Origin: Armatimonadota bacterium
GTDB taxonomy: Bacteria; Armatimonadota; Fimbriimonadia; Fimbriimonadales; GBS-DC
DNA length: 64,000 nucleotides
Assembly: GCA_030550775.1 (NCBI GenBank)
Contig: JAUQOS010000001.1
Span: 19,259-83,258 of the forward strand
Direction of reading: 5' to 3'
Shown here: piece after piece, positions 10,744 through 32,477 of the stretch
Layout: every line of letters starts with the position of its first letter
Position numbering within the stretch: position 1 is the first letter of the stretch
Notes under the pieces: generated by a model
Seen by the model: only the letters and a program-made list of their open reading frames with translations
What the model was told of the DNA's origin: nothing
The model's database searches: none
Program-made: the position numbers and the translations under genes

Positions 10744-10981
10744 CTACCAACCTCAACATTAGCGCCTTGCTGACAAGCAGAGCTAATGCAGGTCGACTTA
10801 GTCGGCAGCACGGGAACGGCACGCCCCATGAACCATCGCACCAAAAGATGAACAACTAAAGCCGTTCCTGTGCATCATAAGCCTGCTCGTGCAGGTTATG
10901 CAGTGTTAGTATTTTCTCAACGACCCGTTCGCGAGACGCGAACGCTACAAAATAACGAACGGAAAAGACTCGTTTACGACC
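10744..10981 (+). other. Highly structured 238-nt spacer between the UBact gene and prcB
   Basis: Stems seen by eye: CATTAGC..TTGCT gac AAGCA..GCTAATG (10757-10788); GCACGGGAACGGC (10808-10820) pairing with GCCGTTCCTGTGC (10861-10873); CATAAGCCTGC tcgt GCAGGTTATG (10877-10900); CGTTCGCG aga CGCGAACG (10926-10944). Confidence 0.35.
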
Positions 10982-11779: not shown

Positions 11780-12531
11780 TGCTAACCCCTTACGATTTTC
11801 AGGAGAACCTTCAGCAGCGCGCCCAATATATTCGCAACCGTTTGCGCGCAGGCAGCCCCGTCATCGGCATCAGCTACGACAACGGCATTATGCTATTGTC
11901 GTTCAAGCGACGCGGGCGCAAAGTGTTCGAAATCTACGACCGCTTGATGTTCTCTGCCATTGGCAACCAAGCCGATGTGGAGAATCTGCGCTTGGCAGCG
12001 ATTGACTTCTCGCATCAAGAGGGCTTCGTGCGCAGCCCCGACGATGTGACGATCCAGCGCGTGGTGGGCTTTGCGCTTTCGCCCGCGCTCAAAAAAGCGT
12101 TCGGCGACCCGCTGACAGCGCCGTTTGTGGTGCGCGCGCTGTTTGCAGAGCTGCACGATACCCCCGAACACGACTTGTTCTACACCCTCAACTACGATGG
12201 CGAGTTCCTGCCCTACGAGCGCTTTGCCGTGATTGGCGGCACGGCAAACGCCGAGGAGCAAGCCACACGCTATTTGGAGGCGAACCTCAGTGGCGTGCCT
12301 ACTTTTGAGAGCAGCGTGCCGGTGGCGCTGACCGCGTGGGGCATCGCCTATGAGGCGGCGCAACTGGAAGAGGCAGACGGCGTTTCGGAAGAGGCAGGGC
12401 GACGCCGCCTGCGTGAACTGCTTGCCGAGGGGCAGCTGGAAGTAGGCATCTTAGAGCGGCACACCTTGCGCGAGAACCGCTTTCGCCTCGTGCCCCACGA
12501 GCAGATAGAGCCGTTCCTGCAACGGCTGTAG
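11779..12531 (+). CDS. prcA: Proteasome subunit alpha
   Basis: 250 aa, immediately after prcB. Shows the typical alpha-subunit N-terminus and core (VIGISYDNGIMLLS, FSAIGNQADVENLR). Confidence 0.85.
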   Translation: MLTPYDFQENLQQRAQYIRNRLRAGSPVIGISYDNGIMLLSFKRRGRKVFEIYDRLMFSAIGNQADVENLRLAAIDFSHQEGFVRSPDDVTIQRVVGFALSPALKKAFGDPLTAPFVVRALFAELHDTPEHDLFYTLNYDGEFLPYERFAVIGGTANAEEQATRYLEANLSGVPTFESSVPVALTAWGIAYEAAQLEEADGVSEEAGRRRLRELLAEGQLEVGILERHTLRENRFRLVPHEQIEPFLQRL

Positions 12532-12533
12532 CG

Positions 12534-14036
12534 CTACTGGCGTGCGGTCGTCAGCGAAAGCCCAAACAGCACCGCACTCGGGTTGCGTCGCCAGAACACG
12601 AACGGCTCAATACAGCGGTCGCGCCAGCCCACCAGCAGCTGCACATCGTACAGTTCGCGGCCGTCGAGGTCAAACTTCAGCAATGCGCCCACACGTGCGT
12701 TGCCTTGTTGGTATTCTACACGAAAACTGGCTTCGCGCCGGGCGCGTATCTGCTCCGACAGGAAGGGGCTGGTGTGGCGCGTGGAGGTTTGCGCATAGCC
12801 CGCCATTAGGGTTAGTTGCTCGCGAGGTTGCCACACTATCTCCAACTGGGGGCGTAGCCACTGGTAAGTATCGGCGATGCCTTGATAGCGCGTCAGGCTA
12901 CTCCACAGGCGCAGCTGGAGCTGCACGCTTTGGTTTGTCCACAAAGGCTGAAGCCATTCGCCTTCCAAGCTCAGGCGTTCGCGTGTGGGGGTACGCTGCC
13001 CATCTATCCGCTCGCTAAGGCTGCCATAGCGTAGGCTTACCTCGCCCGTGCCCGTTCGCGCCCGCGTGGGCACGATTAGCCCCAGTTCGCGTCGCGAGAC
13101 GCGTAGGCGCTCGCGTGGGGCAAATAGCGGGCGTATATCCGACGAATACTCCACGCGCACGGTGGGGGCGGGGCGTGTCTGGGTGCGCTCAGGACGTGCG
13201 CGCAGGTTGTACAGTGGCGACTGTTCAAAGCGTAGGCGTAAGTCGGGGTCGCCAAGGCTGGGCTCGCCTTCGCTGAGAGCCGCACCTCCTATCAAGCGCA
13301 GTTCAGGCACCGCGTGCAGGTAGCTTACTATCCCACCTTGCATCACCAAGCGATCGCCGATGGGCAACTCCACCTGCATGCGCAGCCCCCACCCTGTCTC
13401 GCGTGCATATACGGGCGATGGCATACTCACAATCTCGGCGGTCTCGCGCAGGCGCAGTGTGAACTGAGGCAAGCTCAGCACTTGCCTGCCGTAAAGCACG
13501 AGGCGGGCGTTGCTGACTGTAAGGCGCGCCCCTTGACGCAATCGTATTCGCCCTGCCTGCACGCGAATGGGCGGGCGAAACGGATCGCAGGTGGAAACCG
13601 TCGCTTCGCGGGCAGAAAAATCACCGAGGTCTCCTTCCAGCACAGCGGCGCGAACATAAACCCCCAACACCTCGGCTTGCACACCTTCAAACCGCCCCCG
13701 CTGCAATGCGTAGAAATAATCAATGCGCTCGCCTTGCAACACACCTTCAGGGGCGAAGAAACGGAACGGTGCGTTCGCACGCACGCGCTGCTGTTGCGCG
13801 TCTACAGCGAACTGTTCGCCCTCAAGTGTGCGCCCCTGGTATTCCATCACGACGGCGCCCGAGAGGTTGAGCAGCAACGTGCCCTCGTTAGTGCGGATAA
13901 CCTCGTAGGTAAGGGCGCGGATGGTAAGCGCCTCTTCGGATTGGGGAGCGCCGACGGTGAGTAGAAACGCCGCCCCGCAACCGATCGCGAGGCGGCGCAA
14001 TTGGGTGGTTATCTGGCGCGTGGATGGAAATTGCAT
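12534..14036 (-). CDS. LptD/OstA-like outer-membrane protein (short, 500 aa)
   Basis: Signal/anchor LAIGCGAAFLLTVGAP, an OstA-like N-terminal beta-jellyroll pattern, and the motif ATVSTCDPFRPPIRVQAGRIRL...ARLVLYGRQVLSLPQF, which resembles the LptD T-T-C-D...P-W signature. The C-terminal half has alternating beta-strand character. GGGTATAAT (complement of 14048-14056) lies 11 nt upstream of the ATG. Confidence 0.5.
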   Translation of the reverse strand: MQFPSTRQITTQLRRLAIGCGAAFLLTVGAPQSEEALTIRALTYEVIRTNEGTLLLNLSGAVVMEYQGRTLEGEQFAVDAQQQRVRANAPFRFFAPEGVLQGERIDYFYALQRGRFEGVQAEVLGVYVRAAVLEGDLGDFSAREATVSTCDPFRPPIRVQAGRIRLRQGARLTVSNARLVLYGRQVLSLPQFTLRLRETAEIVSMPSPVYARETGWGLRMQVELPIGDRLVMQGGIVSYLHAVPELRLIGGAALSEGEPSLGDPDLRLRFEQSPLYNLRARPERTQTRPAPTVRVEYSSDIRPLFAPRERLRVSRRELGLIVPTRARTGTGEVSLRYGSLSERIDGQRTPTRERLSLEGEWLQPLWTNQSVQLQLRLWSSLTRYQGIADTYQWLRPQLEIVWQPREQLTLMAGYAQTSTRHTSPFLSEQIRARREASFRVEYQQGNARVGALLKFDLDGRELYDVQLLVGWRDRCIEPFVFWRRNPSAVLFGLSLTTARQ

Positions 14037-14058: not shown

Positions 14059-17000
14059 TTAGTCGCGGTCGGGATCATAGGGGCTCGGGTAGAAGCGCGG
14101 TTGCAGGGCAGCCCCGTAGATGTTGCCCACGCCGTTGCGCGTGCTGCTCCAGAACAAGAGCAACGCCTCATCCAGACCGCCGTACTGGTCGTTGAATAGG
14201 CTGCGCGAGATATCGCGGAACTCCAAGTTTGGCATTGCCCACAGGTAAAGTTCGTTGGTGGGCAGGTCAATCGGCACAGGTGAGGTGTACTCAGGCTCCG
14301 CGCCCAGCCCGCGTGGCAGGTTGCCTTCATCAATCCAGCGGATGATTTGGATCTCTTCTTGCTCCACGATGCGCCCGTCTGGGGTGCGGGTTAGGTAGCG
14401 CACGCGCACCTGCTTGCCAAGGTCTTGCGCGGTGAAGTAGATGTTGCCGCGTTGCGCATCGTACTCGTAGAAGCCAAGTGCCGCGCCGGGGGCGTTCACG
14501 CCCACAAGCTGCACTGTGGCGTGGTTGGTGCCTTGAAGGAGCGTGGCACTGGCATCCAGCGGCAGCTGTCCGCGAACGGTTAGAATCGGCGCATTTAGCC
14601 GAATGCCTGGGCGCAGGGTCTTGAAGAAGAAACCGCCTGCACTATTGGGGGCGGGGCTGCTGCGTCGGAAGAAGACCCACACGCGATCCACCGTTGGGCG
14701 GTCGTCAGGGCTGCACACGCGGTTGAAGTCGCCCTTGCGCACAGGCGAGTCAGCGAGGCGCGTGGTAGCATGGCGCGGGTTGAGCGTGCGCTGAAACACC
14801 ACACGCACCTGCCCGTAAGTGCCTGCGGAGCCGGGCGCAGGCTCGTTTAGGCGATAAACGCGCGGGCGGTAGGTTACGGTCACGAGATCGCGTGCACGCG
14901 GTGCCATGTCTACAAAGCGTATCGTGCCCGTGGCAGGGTCAACCACAACGCGCCCGCGTGGGACAAGCGTGTTGCCGCTTACCTCGTTGTAGGCAAACAC
15001 CAGCAAGCCCGTTTGGGTGTCAACTGCTGGTTGTTGCAGGCGCAACTGGGCAGGATTGGCAGGGTTGCGCTCCAGCAGGATTGACCTGCCGTTGACCTTG
15101 ATATCTAAGTCTGGGTTGTTGGGGTCGCGGTTCCAGTCGCCAAACAGGGCGACCCAGTCAAGGTGGCGTGTGCGCCACACATTTTGGTTGGGGTCTTTGC
15201 GCGCCACCTCATCGGTGATGGCAGCGATGTAGCGTGGCAGCAGAGCATCGGTGATGGCTTCGCGTGCCTGACGGTCGGTCAAGGGCACTAACCGGCGTGT
15301 GAACGGGTTGATGTAGAAGCGTTGCATAAGCACTTCAGGCTCACTCTGGTCGCCCACGGTGCCCACGAAGAACACATCTGCCAGCAGCACGAAACCACTT
15401 GCCAAGTTGCTGGGGTCAGCTGCCACACGGTAGATGTTCGCGCCGACGCTCTCCACCGAGCGCACGATGCTCGACAGCGGCACGCGCTGTTCCGAGGGCA
15501 GTCGACGCACTGATTGCCAATCCGTAAACAGGTCGTTGGGGGTAGCGATGGTGAAAATACCGCTGCGCCCCGCAGGTGCTGCCACATAGAACAGCCAGTG
15601 TCCAACCCCTGTGATGCCAGTGATAGCAAGGCTGCTACGCGGCACAACGGGGTCCAGTGGCACGGTTTGCGGGTTGCCCAAAGGCAGCCCTGTGGCAGCG
15701 TCGAGGCGCACATAGAACAGCAATTCGTAGCGTTGATTGCGCACCACTACTTCGCCCGTCCAGAAGAGGAACGGCGCGCTGCCGGTGAAGTAGACAAACG
15801 GGCGATGATGTTTGATTGTGGCGATTTCAGATGCGGTCAGCGGGCGGTTCAGCCCCAACGCGGTGGCAAAGAGGGTGCCGTTGGGATCGTTCGGATAGGG
15901 TCCGAACAGTTCGCCCCACCAGCGGTCCGCGGAGGCAGGTTCCCAACCGTTGGTCGCACGCACTCCGTCTTGGTTGCGGTTGATGTTCCAGTTCAGCGTG
16001 GATTTGTACAGGTAGAAGCTGTCGGGACGGTTGGCTGGGTCGAAGCGGTTGCTTGCCCAATAGAGGTGCAGCCTACCCGTGTTGGGGTCGCGGAACGCCG
16101 CGGGGGTGAGGTCGCTGACGCGCAGCGCGTTGGGGGGCGGCACATCATCAATCATTGGGCGAACCCCGCGGTTGGTGCTGCCTGTGAGTTGCGTTTCGCG
16201 CACACGCACCACCAAGCGCATGGGCGGCACCGCAAAGCTCCATCCTTCCTGCACCACGCCTGCGCCCTGATTGGGTGGGCCGTTGTGTTGGTAGGGCGCC
16301 ACGAGCTGCGAATAGACGCCCAACGGTTGGAACGGCGGGATGGCGATTGAAACCAATGGCTTGCGCGGGAGCGGCACTTCCACATTGGCTGGGCGGCGCG
16401 GCGGAATCGCAGGAATGCCCAACACGGTGGCGGTGTAGTCGCCCACCTGCGGCTTCTGTAATACGGGAAACGGTTGGTTGAGGGTGGGCGTCCAGAACGG
16501 GTTCGGTTGGGGCCAGAAGCGCGGATCCAAGGTGCTGACCACCGTCGTCCACACTGGGATGCGCGCGAAGAAGGCTGCAGTATCGGAGTAGAGATACTCC
16601 GTGCCTTGAGGCGTGCCAAACGCTTTGCCCAAGTACACAGGGAACAAGTTGACATTGCCTTCGTTGCGTACGGTGAAGGGCTTCCAGAAGGGCTCAAACA
16701 GCGGGTTGTCGGGGCGGAACAGCGAGCCGGCATTGTTGGCAAACAGCGTGCCCCAGTTGAAACCAAAGCCGCCCGGCAGCGAACCGAAATCAATCGTCTG
16801 CTCTTCCACAAACATCCGCTCGTCAACCCGCACCGCGACGGTGGTGTTGACCACACGGTACGGCTCTGCAAACAGGTTGCGCGTGGCGTTGATGCCTGTG
16901 ATGTTCTCCAAGCGATCAATGCGCCCATTGCCGTTCACATCGTGGTAAATGATGATGCCACCGTCGTAGCCGCCAGGGTTGGCAGGCTGGAAGCGTGGGA

Positions 17001-20000
17001 TATCCACCCGCACGTCGACGCGGGTGCCTGTACCGAACACGGGGCTGGGAGCGCGTTGTAGTTCGGTCGCCCCGCCTGCCAACAGCTGCATGCGTCGTGC
17101 GGGGATGTCGGGATAGTCTGGGCTGGCGTTGCTCGGATAGGTCGGTGGGATTTCCCACGGCAGCATGCGGATGGGCACCTGTCCCGCTTGCCAGGCTAAG
17201 TCATTGGCGAAAGCGCGTGCGAGTATCTGCAACGGCACGGGGTTCTCTGTCTGGAGGCGGCGGCGGTCAAACACCTCAAAGTCGCCTACCACAGTGTTGC
17301 CGTGATCGCCTTGCGCGATCGGTTGCTCGCCCAGCGGGCTGAGGAACCGCACGGGCACGCGCACTGCCGGTCGCGATGGATCGGTTTCGTCGGGGCTATT
17401 GCCGTTGAACAGGTTCGCATTCGCGTCGCCGTTGCCCACCACCGCACCTTGCGCCCCACGCACACCCAACGGGTTCGCGATGCCCACACGCCAACCCGAT
17501 GCGGTCGTGAACTCCACGGGCGGATAGGAGGGCACCTCGGCTCCGCCGCCGGGCGCAGGGCGGTCAACCTCGACTGTTTCACGCCACAAGTCAGCTGTCC
17601 AACCAAACACGCCGTCCACGGATACCTGCAGTTCGTAGGTGCTGCCCGGCGTGTAGAAGTTATTGGCAGACGGCTGAATTGCGAACTCACCTGTGGCGAT
17701 GTAGTCCAGCGTGCTGTCTTCGCGGGGCGGGTTCGGCGTTTGGCGCACTTGCAAGACTTGCTCGGCGCGCGACACGCCTGGCCCAAACAGCTGCACGCGC
17801 ACTTGGCGTGGCTGCGTGCCTTGACGGAAGTTCCATACCACCACATAGAAGCGGTCGCCCCACTCCAGCGCGTCGGGGTAAATCGGGGTGAGTTCGTCGG
17901 GGCGGATGCGTCCGTCGCGCACGGCTTCAAACTCTTCGCGCTTGGTCGTGATGGATACGCGCAGCTTACCGTAGTCGCCTCCGTCTTGGGTTGTGGTGCC
18001 TGTGGGATCGCGGATAATCTCGCCCAGCCCGCTCTCAGGTGCCGCTTGGGCGATGCCCGACACATTGAATGCATAGGCGATGCCGTCGTCATCTGCGGCG
18101 TAGAGCCAGCCATCCAGCACGCCTGGCGAGGCGAACACCGTTTCGCCATACAGATCCCAGCCCTCGAACGCCTTGCCACCGCGGGCGTTAGTGAGTTGGT
18201 CGGCGTGGAGAGCGAGCAGCCGCCCTTCATTCGTGGCAACCACCACCGCTGGGCGTGCTGCTGCAATCTCGTTGCCATCGGCGTCGGTGTCTTGCACATT
18301 CGTGAAGATAGGCGAGCTGAATATCGCACCACCCAACGACTCGCTGATGTAAATCAGATTGCCGTTGTCTGCGTTGAAGGCAATAATGCGCCCAATCTCG
18401 CCCCCGACATAGACGATGTTCGTAGGCGTACCGTTGTAGAGCACGCCAGGCACCACCAGCGGCGAGCTGTAGAAGAAGTTGAACTGCGGCACGCGCGGCG
18501 CATCCACGCGGGGCTGCGCCCACACCAGTTGCCCTGTGGCAGCGTCGACCGCGTATACACGACCGCCACCCAAGCCACCGCTGGTAAAGTACACGCGCCC
18601 CAATGCTACCGCCGGCGTGGAAGTAATCGGTTCAATCGGGAAATCGCCCTCCTTAGGATAAACCCACTCCACGCGCTCATCAACGCTCGTGTTGGGATCA
18701 TCCTCACGGAACGGGTTGAGCGCAATCAGCCGCCCATACAGATTACCGCCTTCCACACTGCCGATGTAGACCAAGCGGGTGCTCGGGTCGTACGCTGGCG
18801 TGGACACGAACGCCGCGTTGGGGCGATTATACTGCCAGAAGAAGTAGCTGTCGGGGTCGTTGGGGTTCAAATCGGTTTTGATCACATACACTGAGCCGGC
18901 AGGGTTGCCGATAACAACGCGGTCATCGCCCACGATTAGGGGCGAGGCGTAGTTAAAGCTGGTAGCGTTGCGCGGCTTCACGATCCAGTAGATTTTCGTC
19001 TGTCCGCGCAGGGTGCCGTTCTCGCCGTCGCCTAATGCGTCAATGGCATACACCGCGCCGTTCTGAGCTGCCACAAACACTACCAAGCGCGTGACGATGG
19101 TGTTGCCGTCGCGGATGCGCACCTGCCCGACCGCTGGCGTGGAGTAGATGCCGCTATCTAAGCCCTCGGCGTCCAACAGCCGAATAGCGTCTGCCACCAC
19201 GCGCTGCGAGCCAAGCACCACATCATCGGGCGAATAGTTGGTGACAGAGATTTCGTAGGTGGTGCCCACGCGCATCTCAAGCGGCACATTGTTGAGGCGC
19301 ACCCACCGTCCGCCAAAGCGCTGATCAACGCGAATGCGCTGCTCGCCCCCTTGATACTCAATCACATATTCGGCAAAGCGGGCGTTCTGCTCGTCCGAAG
19401 GGAACCATGCTTCCACGTAGTAGCGCCCCGTGCGCGGTACACGCACACGCCAGTAGGCACGCTGGATATTGTTCGCGTTATTGGTGGGTGCAATCTCGTA
19501 GTAGCTGGGGCTGTAAGCATCGGCTAAGATGTTGTCTTCTGTGAAGAGCCCTGGCGTGAAGTCAGTGCGACTGTCGTAGATAATGCCTTGAGCTTGGTCG
19601 GGCACATCAGGCAGGCGCAGAGTCCAGCGCACGCGCGCGCCTCGCGTGCCCACAGGGTTTTCAACACAGGTTAGCGTGCCGTTGCCGTTAGCGATATAGA
19701 CCAAGTGGTTGCCTGGGTTGAGTGGGTTTCGGATGGCGACCGGCGACGCCTGAACAGTGCCGTAATCGGGCACAAAGCGCACGGCATCTGCTACCACAAT
19801 CGTAGGCGCATCCAGCGACGGAAACTCGCCGTTTTCCGCCTGGAAGCGATTCGTGAGTGTAATCGTGATTCCATCTGCGCTGCCGTTGTGATAGAAGGAA
19901 CGGTCGCCCAACTGACGCCAACCGCCAACGGTTTGGTCAACGAACTCTGGGTGAACCCCTATGCCGTCGGCGACGATGTACTCGGCGCGTGGCGAGTATT

Positions 20001-20457
20001 GCAGCCGTTGCGAACCGGCGCGGGTGGGCGTAGCAGGCACATACACATAGATGCGATAGTAGCCCGCAGGGAGCGGTCCGCTGCGCCAAGTAAAGGTAGA
20101 ACTCGCGTCAGGGCGCGTGTAGGCATATCGGTAGGGCTCAGTTGTGTTCGGGTCGTCGCGATATGGGTCAATCGCGCTTTCGCCTGCTGTGGGCACAATC
20201 CAGTCGCCCGTGGCGCTGGCAAGGGCAGAGTCGTTATCGATAATCAGCGGCGCGCGCACTGCCTCTAAATCAGGCAGTGTCCATGCCAGCAGCAGGCTCA
20301 CTGCGCTGTTGCGCGCGTTGTCCGTGGTGCCTGTGCGTTGTTCGCTGCCACGATGCGTATGCCAGCTATCTTGCGCCGCAACCAGCGCAAACACGCCAAA
20401 CCACAGTCCTGCAAAAAGTCCGCGCACTGCCGAATTCCAGTTCATTCGCCCTACCAT
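14059..20457 (-). CDS. Giant secreted PilY1-like beta-propeller protein (2132 aa), sixth gene of the pilin operon
   Basis: Signal peptide (LFAGLWFGVFALVAAQD). Two golvesin-C-like modules (aa ~120-230 and ~330-428, ending VVADAVRFV / VVADAIRLL). PQQ/BamB-like blades (STPAVG...GAVYAIDALGDG, GRVYAVDAATGQLVWA, GRIIAFNADNGN, GIAYAFN). The remaining ~1300 aa has nothing I recognise. Confidence 0.8.
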   Translation of the reverse strand: MVGRMNWNSAVRGLFAGLWFGVFALVAAQDSWHTHRGSEQRTGTTDNARNSAVSLLLAWTLPDLEAVRAPLIIDNDSALASATGDWIVPTAGESAIDPYRDDPNTTEPYRYAYTRPDASSTFTWRSGPLPAGYYRIYVYVPATPTRAGSQRLQYSPRAEYIVADGIGVHPEFVDQTVGGWRQLGDRSFYHNGSADGITITLTNRFQAENGEFPSLDAPTIVVADAVRFVPDYGTVQASPVAIRNPLNPGNHLVYIANGNGTLTCVENPVGTRGARVRWTLRLPDVPDQAQGIIYDSRTDFTPGLFTEDNILADAYSPSYYEIAPTNNANNIQRAYWRVRVPRTGRYYVEAWFPSDEQNARFAEYVIEYQGGEQRIRVDQRFGGRWVRLNNVPLEMRVGTTYEISVTNYSPDDVVLGSQRVVADAIRLLDAEGLDSGIYSTPAVGQVRIRDGNTIVTRLVVFVAAQNGAVYAIDALGDGENGTLRGQTKIYWIVKPRNATSFNYASPLIVGDDRVVIGNPAGSVYVIKTDLNPNDPDSYFFWQYNRPNAAFVSTPAYDPSTRLVYIGSVEGGNLYGRLIALNPFREDDPNTSVDERVEWVYPKEGDFPIEPITSTPAVALGRVYFTSGGLGGGRVYAVDAATGQLVWAQPRVDAPRVPQFNFFYSSPLVVPGVLYNGTPTNIVYVGGEIGRIIAFNADNGNLIYISESLGGAIFSSPIFTNVQDTDADGNEIAAARPAVVVATNEGRLLALHADQLTNARGGKAFEGWDLYGETVFASPGVLDGWLYAADDDGIAYAFNVSGIAQAAPESGLGEIIRDPTGTTTQDGGDYGKLRVSITTKREEFEAVRDGRIRPDELTPIYPDALEWGDRFYVVVWNFRQGTQPRQVRVQLFGPGVSRAEQVLQVRQTPNPPREDSTLDYIATGEFAIQPSANNFYTPGSTYELQVSVDGVFGWTADLWRETVEVDRPAPGGGAEVPSYPPVEFTTASGWRVGIANPLGVRGAQGAVVGNGDANANLFNGNSPDETDPSRPAVRVPVRFLSPLGEQPIAQGDHGNTVVGDFEVFDRRRLQTENPVPLQILARAFANDLAWQAGQVPIRMLPWEIPPTYPSNASPDYPDIPARRMQLLAGGATELQRAPSPVFGTGTRVDVRVDIPRFQPANPGGYDGGIIIYHDVNGNGRIDRLENITGINATRNLFAEPYRVVNTTVAVRVDERMFVEEQTIDFGSLPGGFGFNWGTLFANNAGSLFRPDNPLFEPFWKPFTVRNEGNVNLFPVYLGKAFGTPQGTEYLYSDTAAFFARIPVWTTVVSTLDPRFWPQPNPFWTPTLNQPFPVLQKPQVGDYTATVLGIPAIPPRRPANVEVPLPRKPLVSIAIPPFQPLGVYSQLVAPYQHNGPPNQGAGVVQEGWSFAVPPMRLVVRVRETQLTGSTNRGVRPMIDDVPPPNALRVSDLTPAAFRDPNTGRLHLYWASNRFDPANRPDSFYLYKSTLNWNINRNQDGVRATNGWEPASADRWWGELFGPYPNDPNGTLFATALGLNRPLTASEIATIKHHRPFVYFTGSAPFLFWTGEVVVRNQRYELLFYVRLDAATGLPLGNPQTVPLDPVVPRSSLAITGITGVGHWLFYVAAPAGRSGIFTIATPNDLFTDWQSVRRLPSEQRVPLSSIVRSVESVGANIYRVAADPSNLASGFVLLADVFFVGTVGDQSEPEVLMQRFYINPFTRRLVPLTDRQAREAITDALLPRYIAAITDEVARKDPNQNVWRTRHLDWVALFGDWNRDPNNPDLDIKVNGRSILLERNPANPAQLRLQQPAVDTQTGLLVFAYNEVSGNTLVPRGRVVVDPATGTIRFVDMAPRARDLVTVTYRPRVYRLNEPAPGSAGTYGQVRVVFQRTLNPRHATTRLADSPVRKGDFNRVCSPDDRPTVDRVWVFFRRSSPAPNSAGGFFFKTLRPGIRLNAPILTVRGQLPLDASATLLQGTNHATVQLVGVNAPGAALGFYEYDAQRGNIYFTAQDLGKQVRVRYLTRTPDGRIVEQEEIQIIRWIDEGNLPRGLGAEPEYTSPVPIDLPTNELYLWAMPNLEFRDISRSLFNDQYGGLDEALLLFWSSTRNGVGNIYGAALQPRFYPSPYDPDRD

Positions 20458-20460
20458 CGC

Positions 20461-23400
20461 CTAAAAACCTCCCCGATCTGCCGAGCTGGGTTTGCGCAGC
20501 GGATACGAACCGCTTAGCGCAGGCTTGTCTAGCGTACTCCATACGATTGAACTCGGGCGAAAGCCCAGCCCGTCCTGTTGTAGATTGTAGTCGCTGCTCT
20601 CTAATTCAAACACTTCGCCCGGAAAGTCGCGCACTTCCACATCGCCACCCGAGCGCACCAGCGTCTCGCCGCTGTAGCTGTTGACAATCAACAGGTTGCC
20701 GTTGTCCAGGTAGCGCGCCTGACGCGGGCGCAATAGGATTGGGCGCACGGGAATGTTGTTCGGGTCCCGAACCAGCTCCGCCCCGCCGATGCGCGTGCGA
20801 ATGAAGTTCGAGTACACCTCGGTTGGCAACATCCATGAGACTGGCAAAGTGTCGCCGATGGTTCCCGTGAGGGGTACCTGCAGCTCGTAGATTCCCGTGC
20901 TGGTAGTGAGCAGCAGGTACAGCCCCGCGGGACCTTGCCCACTGGCGCTTTGCTTTGCCACATCGATGGATTTAGGCGCGAGGATGGGCACAACGGTACC
21001 ATCGGGCAAGCGCATGCGGCGGATGTACAGCGTCTGGTCGCGCCCGTTGACAATCAGTTGCAGCGTCACCATGCCTGCCTCGCTGGTGGCAGGATCCAAC
21101 GGGTCAGCGATACTGGTGGCTTCGAAAGCGCTGACGGCAGCGTTTTGCACTAGCGTTGCAAAGCCGATGCGGGTGCGCGTGCCGTCCCAGTATTCAAAGC
21201 GTTGTGCCGACACATAGCGGTAGTTGCGCCCTAATCGCTGCGAGGGCGTCATCCAGTAGAGCACGCCCAGCATCTCGCCCAGCTGCGGGTGGCGCACCGG
21301 CTCGCCAATGGTGAAGGTATTCGGATCTACTTCATAGCGGTCCACGATATCCACGATTCGGGCGTTGCCCGCATCGGTGATGGTGTAGTGGATCCAGTAC
21401 TCCAGCGGGCGGCGCACGGTGTAGGGGTTGCGCGCCGCGGGCACAAACTCTGTCCACACGCTTACATCGGTGGGGTTGCGCAGGGTTTCAGGGGCACCGC
21501 TGTAGTAGTTTGAGCCGGGCAGGTTGTTCGCCTGTGCGTGGGTCTCGTCACGCAAGTCGATGATATCGATTATTTGCCCTGCGTCGTTGCGCAGTGCCAC
21601 GCGGTCAGGGATGAAGCGCGTGATAACGCGCACTTCAGAGCCAGCGCGGTCAATAATAGCCACGCGATTGCGCTCAGGTTCCACAATCAGGAACTCATTT
21701 TCGCTATAGCGGTAGACACGGGCGTTGGGCGTCAGCGCAAACCGTTGCTTGGTGGGAATTGGCGAGCCGGCGAAAAGGTCTAACTGAGTGTTTTCAGCCG
21801 CCCACACCACACGCCCTGCCGTATCTACCTCTAGCAGGCGGTTCTCGTCGGCAATGATGGTAGTCTGGCGGCTGTAGGCGCGCAGCTCGTTTGCCAAGCT
21901 CACCAGCACTAGCCCCTCGCCCACCGCGATGGGCGACGCCGCGTTGCCCCGCTCGAAGTTCTGCGCAAATCGCTCAAACAGTGCGCGCAACAATGCGCCC
22001 AAGTCGGGGTCGCGTTCAAACTCTTCGCTTAGGTCGTCTACGAAGGGCCAGCGAACAATTGTTTGATAGCGCAGCGGGTTGCTGGGGTCAATCTGTGGGA
22101 TAACGCCTGCTTGGTCTTTGCGCTGCGCCAAATCGGGCTGCAAGCGATACGGGTCTATTGCCAACGCCATCAGCCCCACACGATTGCGTTCCTCACCTTG
22201 CGCGAAGGGGTTGATGGCTACAATCGGCGTGTAGAGCAAGTCGCCCACAATCACAGGCTCAGCACGCGGCTCGGTTAGCAGCAGCACCGCATACCAGCGT
22301 AGGTTGTTCCAGTTTGCCAGCTGCGATTCGGGAACGAAGATGTGGTTGACGGGCGGATTGCCGACGCTGACCACTACAGGCTGCGAGATACTCAGCACAT
22401 TCTCGATAAGATTGATTTGCCCATTGGCATTCGCCCGTGCAAAGCTCTCGATGCGAATCTGTCCAGTTGCGAAATCTATTTTGATGTCGGGGATAGGGTT
22501 GCGCGACTGGTAAGTAAGCGTTGAGAGAGTGTTGTTGGCCGGGTTCGCCCCCGAACGCGCGTAGTCGCGCTGTTGGATGCTAATTTGGAAGTTGTCAGTC
22601 AGCCCGATGGGACCGCCCGTGTTGATGATGAACAGATTCGGTTCCGCGTCCAGTGTAATGAGCACCGTGTAGGGGAAGCTGAAGGGTCCAACGCGCGCTT
22701 GTCCTTCGCCGATTGCGTACACTGCGCCATCGTAGTAGATGGGGGCGCGGCGGAAGGTGAAGTTCATCCACTGCAGTTGTGGTCGGTTGGCGTCGTCGCG
22801 GGCGAAGCTGTGGCTAAAGTTCAGGACGTTGCGCACCAAATCCATAAAGGCGCGGTTTGGCTCGTTGTAGATAGTGCTGGCTTCCACGACGCGCTCCGTG
22901 CGCTCTGGTCCCGGCACGAGTTGGCGGTAGCCGCCGTGCGATTGCCAGCGCCACAAGATGCGGGAAACGCCGCGCGCTTGTGGTTGTGCGCCCGTGCCAC
23001 CTTGGGCTTGCAGCGGCGCTTGCTCCAACAGGGCGATGATGTTGCCGCTGGCGTTGTTGGGGTCAGTCTCTTCCGTGCCAGTGGTAATGTAGAGCACGCC
23101 ATTGGGCGCAAGCGTGTAGCCTCGTAGCAGCTGCGGCGGCACCAGCGCGCCTCCTTCGCTAAACGCGGGCAGCAAGGCTTGGCTACGGAACATCACGCCC
23201 GCATCACGCGCAAATGCCCAGTCGATATAGTAGTCAATCACCAGCGCGATATCGCGCGTGACATCTCCCGGAAGCGGGCGCGTAATGGCGACACGCCCTT
23301 GAGTGCCCACATTGAAGGTGCACTCCGTCGTCACTTCGCTAATCAGCTCGCCTGTAGTGCGGTTAATCACATACACACGCGGGTGCAGCGGGTTATTCGG

Positions 23401-25173
23401 GTCGGCGGTGCCGTCGGCGTTGGCGAAGAACCGCGCGCGCCCCGTAATCCTCGAGCGAAAAGCGTTCTGGAACACGCCCCCCTGTATAATCGGTTCAAGG
23501 ATTTCGCCCTTGGCACCAATCCAAAAGGCGCGTATCGATTCGGTGATTTGGTTGCCTGTGCCCGTGGGGTCGTTGCGCACGCCCATATAGACCACAATGT
23601 CGTTGCCGCTTCCTTGACCGTAGTTGGGCACATAGCCTGCCACAGGCGGCAGCAACCAAGTGCCTATCGTCGTGTTGAGTGGTTGATACCATTCGGCGGG
23701 CACCACATTTTGTGAGCGGATTACATCGGGCGTTTCCGATAGCAACACGGCGTAAAAGCCTGCAGTGGTGGTGTTGCCCACTGTATGCTGGGTCGGCACG
23801 AGCAGGATGGTGTTATCAATCACGATAGGGGCGGGGATGCGTCCGCTGCGCGCAGGGATGGGCAAGGTGCTTCCTGGTGCAGGGGAAGATACTGCCCATG
23901 CCTGTTGCCCAACTTCGGGCACGCGCCCGTCGTTGCCGCGTGGCAACGCCCAATAAGCGCGCACGCCCTGTTCAGTGGCCACCACGACTTGGATCCCGCG
24001 TGGGTGTTCCACAATCACGGGCGGCGAAATGCGCCCTCCGGGCACCTCCACGCGCCATACGCGGTCATACCGTTCGCCGTGTTCGAAGTCTAAAATACCA
24101 TCATCGGCGCGTCCGTCGCCATCCAAGTCGCGTTTGGGCACTGCGTCGTAGCAAACGAGCTCGTTGTTGTTGACCACGAACACCAAGCCGCCGTAGACCA
24201 CCGCACCGCCTTGTTCGCTGAAGCCGCCATCCGCCACGCGCCAGCGAATGCCCAGTGGTGCACCGTACTGGTCTGCCACAGCGTTCGCGCGGCGCTGGTT
24301 GAAGGCATCCGTGCTGCCTGCCCCCGCCCAGCGGATGAGGTTGTAGGCAAATTTGAGCTCCAAATCGGGCACGGTTTGCAGGGCAAGGTCAAACGCCCGT
24401 TGGGGGATATTGCCGTTGGGCAAGCGCAGCGGTTCGTTGATCGCTGCGGCGATGCCTGCCGCGCTGACAAGGATGCGTCCCGAGCCGTAGGTCGCTGCAG
24501 CAATCACGGGTGCGTTGCCCGCGGCGGTGACCACCTGCAACACGGGACGGTTCGCGGTGGTGTCAACTGTCGTGCCGCCGAAGCCACGCCCACGCAGCCC
24601 CAGCTGGGCAACCTCCGCTGGCGAGAGAGTGTAGTAGCCCCGCAGCAGCGGATGGTTCAAATTCACCACGCTCACGCGCGCCGTGTTGGGCGGATTGGTA
24701 AGCTGCACCTCGGGGAACCACAATCTGCCCGTGCTGCCCTCGCGAGGCACATCAATCCACAACATGCCGCCACTGTCCACAAAGCGACGCAACTTCTCGC
24801 GGATATCGGCGGTCATGCCGTTCCAGTTCGTGCGGCTGAGTAGCAAGATTTGGTAGCGTGCCAGCTGTTCATCGCTCAAACGCGCCAAGTTGACCAGCCA
24901 GTAGGCAGCGCGGTCGCGCGTGACAGGGTTGTTGTCTGCGTCGCGGGTGGGCGCAAACGGATTGCGGAACGACACACCGATGGGCTTGAGGTCGGAGCGT
25001 CGCTCCATCGCGTAGAAGGTATACACATCGCGCACGGCGGTGTCGTTCTCACCGAACGCCACCACGCCAGCGTTGATGGTGACGGTGCGCGCCTCGTAGC
25101 CACGCCCATCAGCCCAACTCACCACTGCCAGTCCACTCAGCACGCTCACCAACAGCCACTTCATCCGCATCAT
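20461..25173 (-). CDS. Giant secreted PilY1-like beta-propeller protein (1570 aa), fifth gene of the pilin operon
   Basis: Signal peptide MMRMKWLLVSVLSGLAVVSWA. The N-terminal ~280 aa is DUF4159/GATase-like (ILLLSRTNWNGMTADIREKLRRFVDSGGMLWIDV). The propeller region contains the DLDGDGRADDG loop (24097-24129). The start is 15 nt after the PilX-like gene stop. Confidence 0.8.
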   Translation of the reverse strand: MMRMKWLLVSVLSGLAVVSWADGRGYEARTVTINAGVVAFGENDTAVRDVYTFYAMERRSDLKPIGVSFRNPFAPTRDADNNPVTRDRAAYWLVNLARLSDEQLARYQILLLSRTNWNGMTADIREKLRRFVDSGGMLWIDVPREGSTGRLWFPEVQLTNPPNTARVSVVNLNHPLLRGYYTLSPAEVAQLGLRGRGFGGTTVDTTANRPVLQVVTAAGNAPVIAAATYGSGRILVSAAGIAAAINEPLRLPNGNIPQRAFDLALQTVPDLELKFAYNLIRWAGAGSTDAFNQRRANAVADQYGAPLGIRWRVADGGFSEQGGAVVYGGLVFVVNNNELVCYDAVPKRDLDGDGRADDGILDFEHGERYDRVWRVEVPGGRISPPVIVEHPRGIQVVVATEQGVRAYWALPRGNDGRVPEVGQQAWAVSSPAPGSTLPIPARSGRIPAPIVIDNTILLVPTQHTVGNTTTAGFYAVLLSETPDVIRSQNVVPAEWYQPLNTTIGTWLLPPVAGYVPNYGQGSGNDIVVYMGVRNDPTGTGNQITESIRAFWIGAKGEILEPIIQGGVFQNAFRSRITGRARFFANADGTADPNNPLHPRVYVINRTTGELISEVTTECTFNVGTQGRVAITRPLPGDVTRDIALVIDYYIDWAFARDAGVMFRSQALLPAFSEGGALVPPQLLRGYTLAPNGVLYITTGTEETDPNNASGNIIALLEQAPLQAQGGTGAQPQARGVSRILWRWQSHGGYRQLVPGPERTERVVEASTIYNEPNRAFMDLVRNVLNFSHSFARDDANRPQLQWMNFTFRRAPIYYDGAVYAIGEGQARVGPFSFPYTVLITLDAEPNLFIINTGGPIGLTDNFQISIQQRDYARSGANPANNTLSTLTYQSRNPIPDIKIDFATGQIRIESFARANANGQINLIENVLSISQPVVVSVGNPPVNHIFVPESQLANWNNLRWYAVLLLTEPRAEPVIVGDLLYTPIVAINPFAQGEERNRVGLMALAIDPYRLQPDLAQRKDQAGVIPQIDPSNPLRYQTIVRWPFVDDLSEEFERDPDLGALLRALFERFAQNFERGNAASPIAVGEGLVLVSLANELRAYSRQTTIIADENRLLEVDTAGRVVWAAENTQLDLFAGSPIPTKQRFALTPNARVYRYSENEFLIVEPERNRVAIIDRAGSEVRVITRFIPDRVALRNDAGQIIDIIDLRDETHAQANNLPGSNYYSGAPETLRNPTDVSVWTEFVPAARNPYTVRRPLEYWIHYTITDAGNARIVDIVDRYEVDPNTFTIGEPVRHPQLGEMLGVLYWMTPSQRLGRNYRYVSAQRFEYWDGTRTRIGFATLVQNAAVSAFEATSIADPLDPATSEAGMVTLQLIVNGRDQTLYIRRMRLPDGTVVPILAPKSIDVAKQSASGQGPAGLYLLLTTSTGIYELQVPLTGTIGDTLPVSWMLPTEVYSNFIRTRIGGAELVRDPNNIPVRPILLRPRQARYLDNGNLLIVNSYSGETLVRSGGDVEVRDFPGEVFELESSDYNLQQDGLGFRPSSIVWSTLDKPALSGSYPLRKPSSADRGGF

Positions 25174-25188: not shown

Positions 25189-27828
25189 TTACGGGCGAAT
25201 ATCGCCGACAAAAATCGGTTTCGGGCACACCGGCAGGCGCGGAATAGGTGGCAGTGCCCTGCCCGGATGTTGCCCTGAAGGGTCTTGAGTCGCATCGTAT
25301 GCCACGCGCAGGGGCTCGGCGTCTACGCGCGGGCGCAAAATCGGGTCATATCGCATAAACAGGTTCACCGCATACTGGCGGGTTCGCTCATCATGGAAAT
25401 ACCGTTGATGCTGCTCTGGGATTTCAAATCGCGAGCTGCCATAGTAGCGTGGGATCCAGCCCCAGCGGCGTAGCCATTCAGTCTGGTCGCCCTGAGCCGC
25501 CGTAAAGTTCTCGGCAATGGAACCGACGATAGTGATCCGAATATCCAGCGGCTCGCCGTAGAACGGAAACTCCTCCGACACCACGCCGGGGGCGCGCTGC
25601 CCTGTGCGCAGGTAGTTCGCCCGTGTGTCCTGCGGGTTAGTGTTGAACCAGTAGCCTGGAATCACAAAGAAGCTGCCCTCTTGGGCAAACAGTGCCGCCT
25701 CGATTCGGATGTCCAGCGGTTGCACGGCAGCCGCGCTCATTAGGTAAGGCGCGTTGCCCGTCGGTAGCTGATAGTTCGCCACATTCGAGAGCGGGTGCAG
25801 TTGCAGCTGCAATAGGTTCGGGATGCCTGGTTCAGGAATCAGCAGGTACTGTGCACCGTTGGGACGCGGCACCAACGGAAGTGCGACTTTCTCGTAGTTC
25901 GGATACACTTGCAGCGGGTTGCCCCCCAGCGTGTAAACGCGCGGGTCTGCCACAACGCCAAACGGATAGTAGGGGTTGTAGCCCGCGTCGTCGAACCACG
26001 CGGGGTTCACCAACAGGTTGATGAACGAGCCGCTGCGTGTGGCGTGGCGCAGGAAGAGCCGAATTGCACCGAAGTTGCCTGTGTATTGCTGAGGGTCAAT
26101 TCCGAAGCTGAACAGTAGGCGCATCGGGCGGTCTGGTAGCACCTCGAAGAAGTAAGGTGCCTCTAGATTGGTGGGGTCGCCCTGAGCTTCCGCTGGGCTG
26201 TCAAAGGTGCGCTGCAAGAACTGCGTGGTGTTCACACACACATAGTCCTTCGCGAGAATCGCTAATGCCGAGTTCTTGTCGCCTTTGACGATGTTGCCTT
26301 CAATATAAGCGGTACCATTGGTGACAATCAGAATTTGTCTGCCTGAAGGGATGCGCCCTTTGATGCGCACATTGCCCTCTGCGTAAATCACGCCGTTGAA
26401 GGGCACATCAAAGGTGCGGTCGTTTTGGGTGATTTCGCTGGTAAGCGTAGGGTCGGTTGGGTCATTCGGGTTGCGGAAGAAGAAGCTCATCGTCTTAAGG
26501 TTGGTGGGACGCCCGGTGGTAGGGTCGAACCACACATCGCGTGGGTCAGCTTGGTTGCGTGTGATGCGGAAGCCCTGAGCGCGAATGGTGCCGTCAGGGT
26601 TAAGGATTTCCACCAGTTCAATGAACGCGCCCGGCGGTTCGTAGAACGGTCCGTTCCAGTATCGCGACTTGCCAGGGTTGAGCCAATCGCTGCGCAAGGT
26701 GTAGCCACCTAACAGGTTGCGGCTCTCTTGTTGGATGTCTTGCGCGTTGTTGATATAGATTCCGCGTCCGTAGCCGTACTGCCCTGTGTTGAACCATGTG
26801 CCGTTGGGGCGTTGGCGCCAGATGCCCGACTCGCGCGTTGCGGCCACATAGCGCGGCAGGTTGGTGGCGGGGTCTACGGTATCCATGCGCGGTGGCTCCA
26901 GGTAGGCGATAGCGCGTGGGTAGCCGTCTGCAGCGGTGAGCGGGCGTCCGTCGCGATACAGCCCGTTGGCAGTCGTGAAATTCGGGTCGCGGCTGGGCGG
27001 CAGGTTGAACACGCCCTGAGGTGTAATCAGTTGCACCGTTGTGTTGTCGCCGTGCACCACCTCGCCTGCTACATAAATTCGCTCGCCGCGTGTGGGGTCA
27101 AGCACAATCCGAACATCGCCGTTGAAGCGCAGGTTGCCGTTCACATAAATCGATCCGCCCCCCATACCAAACTCCGTGATGCCCCCGTCAGGCGGCTCGC
27201 CCAAGATGGTGCGGTATGGTAGCTCGCGCCCTTGCTCATCCAGCAGCCCAATGGTGGGCACGCCCAGCTCCATCAACGTGCCGCGTTGCTCCTTGTTCAT
27301 CACGAAGCGCAGGTAGTCAATGGTGCCGATTTGCACATAGGCAACGCGTTCAGCACGCTGCTCGCGGTCTGCCAACTGGAAGGTCGTGGGGTCGTTCGGG
27401 TCTACCAACCCCACACGCCCGATTGATTCTATCTTTATCACCGGTTGCTGATGCACGGGTCCAGAGGGCTGGTAAGACACGCGAATGAGCGCACGCCCGC
27501 CCTCTAAGTTGAGGCGCGTGAAGCCCCCGGTGCGGTCGGCAGGGTTGTAGGGTTTGAGCCAGAAGTAGTCAGGGTCAGCAGGATTGGTGAGGTTATCGGG
27601 AATCGGTCGCCAGTCGGCACCGAACTCGCTGCGCACCAGCTGGTCAATTGCAAACTGCAAGCCCGATTCGGCAAAGTAGGCGGCGCTGAGCCGTTCGCGT
27701 GCTTGGCGCACATTGATGAGGTTGCGCGCAATTACCGCGATGAACACACCGCCCAAAATCAGTAGGGCAAAGCTCACCAGCAGCGCGACCACCAGCGTCT
27801 GACCGCGTTCCGTTCGTGTGCCTCGCAT
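25189..27828 (-). CDS. PilX-like giant minor pilin (879 aa)
   Basis: N-terminus RGQTLVVALLVSFALLILGGVFIAVIARN...RLSAAYFAESGLQFAIDQL matches the PilX_N pattern (hydrophobic helix, then A-E-x-G). The start is 1 nt after the upstream stop. Confidence 0.75.
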   Translation of the reverse strand: MRGTRTERGQTLVVALLVSFALLILGGVFIAVIARNLINVRQARERLSAAYFAESGLQFAIDQLVRSEFGADWRPIPDNLTNPADPDYFWLKPYNPADRTGGFTRLNLEGGRALIRVSYQPSGPVHQQPVIKIESIGRVGLVDPNDPTTFQLADREQRAERVAYVQIGTIDYLRFVMNKEQRGTLMELGVPTIGLLDEQGRELPYRTILGEPPDGGITEFGMGGGSIYVNGNLRFNGDVRIVLDPTRGERIYVAGEVVHGDNTTVQLITPQGVFNLPPSRDPNFTTANGLYRDGRPLTAADGYPRAIAYLEPPRMDTVDPATNLPRYVAATRESGIWRQRPNGTWFNTGQYGYGRGIYINNAQDIQQESRNLLGGYTLRSDWLNPGKSRYWNGPFYEPPGAFIELVEILNPDGTIRAQGFRITRNQADPRDVWFDPTTGRPTNLKTMSFFFRNPNDPTDPTLTSEITQNDRTFDVPFNGVIYAEGNVRIKGRIPSGRQILIVTNGTAYIEGNIVKGDKNSALAILAKDYVCVNTTQFLQRTFDSPAEAQGDPTNLEAPYFFEVLPDRPMRLLFSFGIDPQQYTGNFGAIRLFLRHATRSGSFINLLVNPAWFDDAGYNPYYPFGVVADPRVYTLGGNPLQVYPNYEKVALPLVPRPNGAQYLLIPEPGIPNLLQLQLHPLSNVANYQLPTGNAPYLMSAAAVQPLDIRIEAALFAQEGSFFVIPGYWFNTNPQDTRANYLRTGQRAPGVVSEEFPFYGEPLDIRITIVGSIAENFTAAQGDQTEWLRRWGWIPRYYGSSRFEIPEQHQRYFHDERTRQYAVNLFMRYDPILRPRVDAEPLRVAYDATQDPSGQHPGRALPPIPRLPVCPKPIFVGDIRP

Positions 27829-31664: not shown

Positions 31665-32477
31665 CTATGGGCGCATCAGGTAAGGCGACTCGAACATCTG
31701 ACGCGAGTCGACCACCTTCACATTGCCCGTTAGGAACAGCACAATGTCGTTTTTCGCGCGTTGCGGAATATCACCATCATATGAGCGATGATAAGTGCAC
31801 CAAGTAACCACAGCAGTCGTGTCGGGTGCACGATAACCCAGTTGGCGTGGGTTGTCGCTGCCTTTGGGACCTATGTCGCCATCGTAGTAGCCCTGACCGT
31901 ACTGGGTACCGCTACGCTGATTCTCCTGTTGGTTTAGCTCTTGATCCGACCAAAACAGCGTGTAGCGCAGCTCGTACACAAACGAGTTGCCGCGTGGCAC
32001 GCGCCCTACCGAATAACTATCGTAGGCGTAGAAGCAAACTTGTGGCGCGTTCGGTAGCCCCGTGCCAAAACGCACGGGCGTGGTGCCTTGCCCATAGAGG
32101 GCATGCCCGCGCGGATAGTATGCCTGCACGATTGTGCGCTTGTCGCTAATGGGGTTGTTCGGGCAGTAGAAAATCTCGTCGTTCTTGAGATAGCTCCCCA
32201 GTGGTTTCGGGGCACGGTCAAACGGCACCGCCGCTTGCTGGTTACAAGTCAGGTTGCCGTTCGCATCCACCGCATACGCGCCCAACACAAAGGGGTATGC
32301 ACGGTAGTCTTCCTTGTATTGTTGTAGCGCAAGATAAATTTGGCTTAGGTTTGAGATGCAGCGGCTGCGTCGCGCATTCTCGCGCACCGTGCCCGCAACA
32401 GGAAAAATAATCGCCGCCAAAATAGCGATTATCGCGATCACCGTCAACAACTCCACCAGAGTAAAACCTCGCCGCAT
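31665..32477 (-). CDS. Prepilin-type pilin/pseudopilin (270 aa), first gene of the operon
   Basis: MRRG|[23 protein letters not shown] (Gly-1, Phe+1, Glu+5). The GspG/DUF1559-like body has a degenerate C-terminal tail ([15 protein letters not shown]). Confidence 0.85.

Follow-up and report, generated by a model that had tools for sequence, protein, structure and literature searches.

A conserved six-gene cassette of Armatimonadota that may encode a type IV pilus tip with two unrelated giant secreted proteins

We analysed a 64,000-nucleotide (nt) window from the genome of an Armatimonadota bacterium, to which all nt coordinates below refer, and in particular a cassette of six minus-strand genes that encode three giant pilin-like proteins, two still larger secreted non-pilin proteins of 1570 and 2132 amino acids (aa) and a 270-aa prepilin, 6090 aa in total. 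On balance we think it probable that the products of these six genes form the priming and tip complex of the type IV pilus in Armatimonadota, an obligate, calcium-dependent assembly with non-homologous giant adhesins. By analogy, the two non-pilin giants probably act as pilus tip adhesins, the job of PilY1 in Pseudomonas. The observations behind this proposal are the domain content of the proteins, the non-homology of the giants to PilY1 and to each other, the conservation of short acidic motifs, the synteny of the six genes and their embedding, in relatives, in a pilBCD...pilM cluster.

According to the list of open reading frames (ORFs), neighbouring genes of the cassette are separated by gaps of 1 to 76 nt. 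In order of transcription they encode the 270-aa prepilin (31665..32477), a 609-aa PilV-like giant minor pilin (29759..31588), a 630-aa PilW-like giant minor pilin (27830..29722), an 879-aa GspK/PilX-like protein without Glu5 (25189..27828), the 1570-aa protein (20461..25173), which occupies the position of PilY1, and the 2132-aa protein (14059..20457). The last two, the final conserved genes of the operon, are separated by 3 nt. A preliminary description of this DNA had singled them out as two PilY1-like proteins in tandem, and both reading frames, the peptides it quoted and a DLDGDGRADDG stretch were all found where it had placed them. Like PilY1, the two giants are Sec-exported non-pilins encoded with PilV-, PilW- and PilX-type pilins, the PilX/GspK assignment being weak.

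A class III signal with the motif G/[FA]xLxE (a slash marks the processing site) is present in the 270-, 609- and 630-aa proteins. The 270-aa protein (MRRG/FTLVE) matched N_methyl (E 6e-7) and SBP_bac_10/DUF1559 (E 3e-9) in Pfam, and in NCBIfam the GspG N-terminus (E 2.7e-9) and TIGR02532 (32.4 bits against a cut-off of 16.3). It is a candidate major pilin, or a candidate FimU/GspH-like pilin with a DUF1559 head, and an orthologue was found in every locus that has upstream DNA. The motif is visible in the 609-aa protein (RG/ASLVE), which scored slightly under the N_methyl cut-off (19.2 bits against 21.2, E 9e-4) and whose PilV/GspI-like N-terminus matched TIGR02523 PilV (E 5e-6) and Verru_Chthon cassette B (E 1.4e-5), both below their cut-offs. 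Its gene is syntenic across all loci. The 630-aa protein (TG/FTLVE) passed the N_methyl cut-off (29.7 bits against 21.2, E 4e-7) and has a PilW/GspJ/HpsC-like N-terminus: HpsC was matched at E 9e-9, Verru_Chthon C at E 9e-6 and TIGR02532 above its cut-off, and a GspH-type N-terminus also scores. The 879-aa protein (ERG/QTLVVALLV) has the pilin-like helix and lacks Glu5, an N-terminus of the form G/Q[TS]L-hydrophobic that is conserved in six diverse orthologues and makes the protein a cap candidate. It is the best-conserved member of the cassette, with 35-38% identity where the giants keep 26-30%. By sequence, its body appears to adopt a fold of no recognised type, and its GspK/PilX assignment is weak.

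Synteny was assessed with one genome per GTDB species, which gave 27 loci, by comparing all ORFs with the six window proteins using BLAST. The identical six genes were found in the identical order in every locus with enough DNA, down to 26-30% identity. The gene for the 2132-aa protein follows that for the 1570-aa protein in 24 of the 24 reference loci that extend past the latter, and this order also holds in loci L003, L033 and L034. In distant Armatimonadota the cassette is embedded in a pilB-pilC-pilD ... pilM type IV pilus cluster. In L031 and L034 it is preceded by T2SSF (PilC) and Peptidase_A24 (PilD) genes and followed by PilM_2 and two membrane protein genes, to which L031 adds a lipoprotein gene; in L033, T2SSE, T2SSF and A24 genes precede the cassette; and in L004 the cassette is followed by PilM_2, an unassigned gene of 313 aa and then a T2SSM-like match that is weak (E 1.1e-4, 22.8 bits against a cut-off of 27.8).

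Homologues of the giants are numerous and largely confined to one phylum. Database searches returned 122 + 118 homologues of the 1570-aa protein, all from Armatimonadota where the organism is named, and 72 of the 2132-aa protein. The named full-length homologues come from Fimbriimonadales hot-spring metagenome-assembled genomes (MAGs), 'bacterium HR15', Fimbriimonadaceae, Chthonomonadaceae, Armatimonas and one MAG labelled Abditibacteriota; two homologues that bear the labels Synechococcus or Kamptonema probably result from mis-binning. A HMMER profile of aa 1-1110 of the 1570-aa protein matched 694 cluster representatives (50% identity) at E <= 1e-3, at least 389 of them at E <= 1e-30. The best 150 of the 694, nearly all of 1350-1840 aa with a few shorter fragments, were all members of the 1570-aa family, and among them was no bridge to a known family. 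Public annotations of these proteins read 'hypothetical' or 'DUF4159 domain-containing', and 'BamB' for the 2132-aa family. In two MAG contigs the orthologue of the 1570-aa protein is split into two ORFs (L018, 10001-14642; L029, 10001-14483), which may be due to a frameshift, an assembly error or pseudogene formation.

The 1570-aa protein begins with a Sec-type signal peptide (aa 1-21, ...VSWA/DG, read by eye from the translation) and has no pilin N-terminus. An AlphaFold2 model of aa 1-1110, built from an alignment of 48 diverse sequences, had a mean predicted local distance difference test score (pLDDT) of 87.4 and a predicted template modelling score (pTM) of 0.89. The alpha/beta domain at aa ~30-285 (24319..25086), which includes the segment ILLLSRTNWNGMTADIREKLRRFVDSGGMLWIDV (aa 108-141), was modelled with a pLDDT of about 90, and Foldseek matched it to 2gk3 (STM3548, class-I-glutamine-amidotransferase-like; probability 1.0, template modelling score TMt 0.49) and also to GlmA. 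In Pfam, DUF4159 (PF13709) matched aa 98-188 of the window protein below its cut-off (19.4 bits against 25.9, E 8e-4), and it was matched in 30 of 31 diverse family members, the best of them above the cut-off (E 4.6e-7, 30.0 bits). Sporadic matches to GLMA_2nd, DUF4350, GIFT and ThuA of the related clan were seen among the same 31 members. Both sequence and model thus point to the DUF4159/class-I-glutamine-amidotransferase-like fold that the preliminary description had recognised here.

The remainder of the 1570-aa protein is predicted to be made of beta domains. The region aa ~300-1107 (21853..24276) was modelled as an all-beta, propeller-like domain of repeated four-strand units with long insertions, and its best Foldseek matches were the DDB1, RAVE and semaphorin propellers (E 1e-6 to 3e-5, low TM). 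For aa ~1108-1530 (20584..21852), a family profile searched against the PDB found the designed NHL 'Pizza' propellers (E 4e-7) and Brat NHL (E 0.012), which suggests a putative six-bladed propeller region of NHL type; in Pfam, NHL was matched in 11 and PQQ_2 in 9 of the 31 family members, while the window protein itself had no NHL match. The last 30 aa (20464..20553; ...WSTLDKPALSGSYPLRKPSSADRGGF; ...LRKPSSADRGGF) form a conserved extreme C-terminal tail. Invariant columns run from S1542 to R1567 in the alignment of homologues, and the consensus across the phylum is P-x-F-A-D-R-x, with 90% or higher conservation of the terminal P and R. The tail may serve as a strand for docking or as a signal for sorting.

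The 2132-aa protein likewise has a signal peptide (...ALVAA/QD, read by eye from the translation) and no pilin N-terminus, and is built from other domains. Golvesin_C (PF25275) was matched in two stretches with E 3.7e-26 (92.2 bits against a cut-off of 31.6). The first module covers aa ~100-230 (19768..20160, start approximate) and ends in VVADAVRFV (aa 221-229); the second, the best PF25275 stretch, covers aa 307-427 (19177..19539) and ends in VVADAIRLL (aa 420-428). The two golvesin-C-like modules proposed from these endings were therefore borne out, and the domain was matched in all 18 members of the family (best E 1.8e-41). Golvesin_C is assumed to bind carbohydrate and may be wall-associated. 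The literature we searched held nothing on its function in bacteria, since golvesin papers treat a eukaryotic Golgi and vesicle marker, mostly in Dictyostelium.

A beta-propeller of PQQ/BamB type follows at aa ~440-830 (17968..19140), where PQQ_2 (PF13360) scored 33.6 bits against a cut-off of 27.6. Against the PDB, the family profile matched the 'Cake' PQQ-like designs (1e-36), quinoprotein alcohol dehydrogenases (1e-13) and BamB (1e-8), with the range extending to 1e-7. This is the stretch of about 450 aa that had earlier been read as propeller blades, and each giant does contain a propeller region. The identity as BamB given in public annotation was rejected, as the NCBIfam equivalog models scored 26-29 bits against cut-offs of 285-423. 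The 1,300 aa beyond it, previously described as unknown sequence, can now be resolved in outline. An AlphaFold2 model of aa 956-2132 (pLDDT 81.5, pTM 0.76) was all-beta. Beta-sandwich domains, whose tandem units match protocadherin Ig-like folds in Foldseek, are placed at aa ~835-1450 and precede a C-terminal propeller region of five to six blades at aa ~1450-2125 (14083..16110, approximate). The propeller resembles sialidases and glycoside hydrolase families 43 and 32 (GH43, GH32): Foldseek returned Neu2, NanH, GH43 and GH32 entries for aa 956-2132 at E 4e-6 to 1e-4 and probability 1.0, with TMt of at most 0.42 and identities of only 7-11%. Among the 18 family members there was no Pfam glycoside hydrolase or BNR match. 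The sequence and fold matches of the PQQ-, NHL- and sialidase/GH43-type propellers gave no evidence of PQQ binding or catalytic residues.

Short acidic loops link the two giants with one of the pilins. In PilY1, 'calcium-binding motif 1' has the form Dx(D/N)xDGxxD and a role in the balance of extension and retraction (PMC13190605). A loop comparable to PilY1's had been noted in the preliminary description, and the one in the 1570-aa protein, DLDGDGRADDGILD (aa 349-362, 24088..24129), does match this motif. By coordinate arithmetic DLDGDGRADDG is aa 349-359 (nt 24097-24129), of which DLDGDGRAD (aa 349-357) fits motif 1, and calcium binding is predicted. In the model the loop is flanked by strands 338-343 and 370-376 and lies on the edge of the first blade unit. 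It is kept at the homologous position in 27 of the 27 orthologues that cover the site, contrary to the refuting outcome set in the preliminary description, a loop not conserved in orthologues. It reads DLD[GN]DG..DDG..D even in orthologues at 26% identity, and in a phylum-wide alignment of 101 sequences D349, D357, G359, D362, G366, D370 and W373 all reach at least 90% conservation. The 630-aa pilin contains an exact DxDxDGxxD match found by regular expression, DLDGDGQID (aa 466-474, 28301..28327), with a homologous match in 19 Fimbriimonadales orthologues and none in the distant loci L029-L031. The third loop, the EF-hand-like DVNGNGRID of the 2132-aa protein (aa 1173-1181, 16915..16941), was found by regular expression and alignment. 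D1173 and G1178 are invariant in an alignment of 18 family members, and the DxNxNGxxD form recurs in almost every orthologue, even at ~30% identity. The 6090 aa of the cassette thus contain the pattern D.[DN].[DN]G..[DE] three times, where shuffles predict 0.04 occurrences, and 0 of 2000 shuffles gave as many as three. In some lineages the 2132-aa orthologue has one further such loop downstream.

A mechanism can be suggested by analogy with FimU-PilVWX-PilY1 and GspHIJK. Joined by their N-terminal helices, the pilin-like proteins would form the first filament turn, and the Glu5-less 879-aa protein would cap this assembly. The two Sec-exported non-pilin propeller proteins would then dock on the capped assembly as a heteromer and be carried to the pilus tip. 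There the 1570-aa protein would take the PilY1 position with its DUF4159 domain, loop-bearing large propeller and putative NHL-type propeller, while the 2132-aa protein, with two Golvesin_C modules and PQQ-type and sialidase/GH43-like propellers, would offer a likely glycan-directed surface for adhesion or processing. As in PilY1, the complex would be stabilised or gated by calcium, here bound to the three conserved acidic loops. A bolder version, in which a calcium-latched tip complex of six proteins and ~670 kDa (three pilins of 600-900 aa and two multi-propeller giants) replaced a PilY1-type tip and binds, perhaps also cleaves, polysaccharide as a pilus-borne glycan-harvesting device, is speculative, and we regard it as doubtful.

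Several results weigh against the tip-complex proposal. Membership of the PilY1/PilC family is judged by the PF05567 propeller in Pfam at E <= 0.1 (PMC13190605), and neither giant had a match at this level; at E <= 1, PF05567 was found in 0 of 31 members of the 1570-aa family and 0 of 18 members of the 2132-aa family. Three profile searches of the PDB at E <= 10 did not return PilY1 (3HX6), nor was it among the best 50 Foldseek matches of either modelled giant, which were DDB1/semaphorin or sialidase/GH43 propellers. The family membership was therefore rejected on Pfam, PDB-profile and Foldseek tests. With no detectable PilY1 homology, the PilY1-like role rests on context and analogy; of the earlier label 'PilY1-like', the gene position and the motif loop stand and the family membership does not. 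The proposed cap is also hard to place, as T2SS_GspK was matched weakly by two of six members of the 879-aa family (best E 0.038) and neither the protein nor its family had any other Pfam match or a PDB match. In the window the cassette adjoins no pilus machinery gene, and none occurs elsewhere in it. Locus L032 (JAUSGG010000161.1, 1-15671) encodes pilC, pilD, two small pilins, three giant pilins and a homologue of the 1570-aa protein, and has neither a 2132-aa homologue nor pilM downstream of it. Not every lineage, then, requires the second giant, which is dispensable in at least one, and this qualifies the finding that related genomes carry the pair (both present in all 24 reference loci). 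We found in the literature no account of an Armatimonadota pilus tip cassette and no experiment on any Armatimonadota pilus.

The results on PilY1 bear on a related explanation, that the giants are true but very divergent PilY1/PilC homologues, paralogues of each other with swapped accessory domains. The pilY1 gene position behind PilV/W/X-like genes and the exact match to calcium motif 1 would fit, and the N-terminal domains of PilY1 proteins do vary, vWFA and DUF4114 being examples (PMC13190605). The propeller type is less decisive than it appears. The preliminary description had set grouping with BamB or PQQ dehydrogenases against grouping with PilY1, and taken literally the 2132-aa propeller falls on the former side; yet this dichotomy is soft, because the C-terminal domains of canonical PilY1 are themselves PQQ-like, carrying the SMART PQQ repeat and resembling the quinoprotein dehydrogenases 1H4J, 1LRW, 1YIQ and 1FLG (PMC6322766). 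The same four PDB entries were matched by the profile of the 2132-aa family. Against divergence from PilY1 stand the absence of PF05567 and 3HX6 from all the searches described above, the C-terminal domains, which appear to be of NHL type and sialidase/GH43-like type, and the place of the loop, which lies in the first blade of an N-proximal propeller and not in a C-terminal PilY1-type domain. Nor are the giants similar to each other: BLASTP gave E >= 1 and hhalign a probability of 0.7%, and the earlier idea of a paralogue pair was discarded. We consider this explanation quite improbable.

The main rival to a pilus tip is a pseudopilus for secretion, similar to that of the type II secretion system (T2SS), with the giants as its cargo, that is, as glycan-binding or glycan-degrading exoproteins. 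The pilin-like N-termini do score best against GspG, GspH, XpsI, GspK and HpsC, a polysaccharide-secretion pseudopilin, and the 270-aa protein is a DUF1559 pseudopilin; the folds of the giants are enzyme-like (sialidase/GH43/GH32 and PQQ), and both carry Sec signal peptides, as T2SS substrates do. However, the flanks in relatives hold PilB/C/D-type genes and PilM_2 (PF11104), which is typical of type IVa pili and not of T2SS, and the flanking DNA examined showed no GspL, GspC or secretin. The giants are inherited strictly 1:1 with the minor pilins, at a divergence that matches theirs, a pattern seen more typically in structural partners than in cargo, and the conserved calcium loops are common to one pilin and both giants. 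Secretion of the giants as cargo is thus unlikely in our view. The preliminary description had left open whether the giants are alternative tips or parts of a heteromeric one. Interchangeable, condition-dependent tips of one pilus, like the multiple PilY1 sets of Myxococcus, would account for two different large non-pilins in series with differing putative binding domains, and for the lineage (L032) that has the first giant alone. Known alternative tips, however, belong to separate minor-pilin/PilY1 clusters (PMC13190605), whereas here the genes lie in one tight operon with a 3-nt gap, and the giants are not paralogues and have no common pilin-docking domain. The fixed co-encoding and order in 24 of 24 reference loci, and in the three further loci named above, therefore disfavours alternative tips, which we take to be very improbable, and fits an obligate two-component arrangement. 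Least probable of all, and scarcely to be expected, is that the giants form a periplasmic or envelope scaffold of the pilus machine, as BamB-like platforms or as peptidoglycan or outer-membrane anchors. The BamB/PQQ_2-type propeller and the public 'BamB' label, the place of the cassette between pilD and pilM in relatives and the possible wall association of Golvesin_C all suggest such a role, but the giants have sizes (1570 and 2132 aa), several domains of carbohydrate type and calcium loops such as adhesins typically have. The direct linkage is, moreover, to the minor-pilin trio and not to pilMNOPQ, and the cassette is intact though away from machinery genes both in the window and in HR15.

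The priming and tip complex that we favour can be compared with several known systems. Closest in gene logic is FimU-PilV-PilW-PilX-PilY1 of Pseudomonas and Myxococcus (PilC in Neisseria), in which pilin genes are followed by that of a Sec-exported non-pilin propeller protein. The two systems have in common a Glu5-less cap-like pilin, calcium motif 1, a variable N-terminal accessory domain and linkage to pilBCD and pilM, the last of these, for the cassette, in relatives. They differ in that the cassette has no PF05567 propeller and encodes two unrelated giants instead of one PilY1, carries its loop in the N-proximal propeller and has DUF4159 and Golvesin_C in place of vWFA or DUF4114 as accessory domains. 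Its minor pilins have 600-900 aa, whereas usual ones have roughly 130-270 aa. The GspH-GspI-GspJ-GspK set of T2SS is also similar, as the helices of the cassette score against GspG, GspH, XpsI and GspK and its last, Glu5-less pilin resembles GspK, which is the largest subunit of the T2SS pseudopilus tip and binds calcium. These matches are N-terminal only and below family cut-offs, however; the genomic context has PilM and not GspL/M/C, and T2SS operons have nothing equivalent to the two giants.

The Verru_Chthon (TIGR02596/98/99/02600) and cyanobacterial HpsA-D cassettes likewise encode a large protein with several pseudopilins. The 609- and 630-aa proteins match Verru_Chthon B and C and HpsC over only ~60 N-terminal residues (25 bits against 51-256, and 35 against 200), and the 879-, 1570- and 2132-aa proteins matched no Verru_Chthon or Hps model of NCBIfam at E <= 0.1. 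Membership of either cassette type was rejected, as the similarity is confined to the N-terminal helix and there was no full-length match to TIGR02598, TIGR02599, TIGR02600 or HpsA-D. Large modules delivered to the tip or grafted on minor pilins are known from Thermus ComZ, Vibrio cholerae TcpB and the modular pilins PilB and PilC of Streptococcus sanguinis (modular pilins are described in PMC8179133); these are single and much smaller modules, whereas the cassette has three giant pilins and two non-pilin giants that are inherited together. The PQQ/BamB, NHL and sialidase/GH43 propellers are matched domain by domain, and those of the cassette differ in being part of multi-domain secreted proteins of a pilin operon.

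The comparisons suggest that what is new is a minor-pilin/tip-adhesin module with non-homologous, unusually large parts that is conserved across a phylum, the module type itself being known. The biology of type IV pilus tips rests almost wholly on PilY1/PilC of Proteobacteria and Myxococcota. If our proposal is correct, a whole, little-studied phylum makes its pilus tip out of much larger, non-homologous parts while keeping the gene logic and the calcium-loop motif, so that a device central to adhesion and mechanosensing would have either converged or diverged to an extreme. The proposal would also give a function to at least 389 clusters (50% identity) now annotated as 'hypothetical', 'DUF4159' or 'BamB', and correct the misleading label 'outer membrane protein assembly factor BamB' of the 2132-aa family. 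How Armatimonadota bind to surfaces or polysaccharides in hot-spring mats and soils could be learned from the calcium loops, the conserved C-terminal tail and the Golvesin_C modules.

Downstream of the cassette by 22 nt lies a 500-aa gene on the same strand (12534..14036), possibly co-transcribed with it. Its product has a signal-like N-terminus and only weak matches in Pfam and NCBIfam, to DUF3769 (OstA-like) and LptC. We place it outside the conserved module and rejected it as a member of the system because its orthologue is confined to the closest relative (L015); in HR15, other genes follow the cassette. Promoter and terminator scans at the ends of the operon were uninformative, with counts equal to the shuffle level.

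The remainder of the window encodes housekeeping functions, including a Pup-proteasome cluster. This cluster, at 8862-12531 on the plus strand, consists of a PafA-type Pup-ligase gene (E 8e-157) and, after it, two genes for proteasome subunits; a DNA methylase ORF (7502-9010) overlaps the annotated start of the Pup-ligase ORF. Directly upstream of the cassette are genes for a DinB-family protein (32729-33205, minus strand) and a CAP/SCP-family secreted protein (33335-33805, plus strand), neither with an evident link to it. A further giant of 1468 aa, encoded at 35708-40114 on the minus strand and unlinked to the cassette, contains several WD40 propellers and, after these, Rha78A-like Ig domains.

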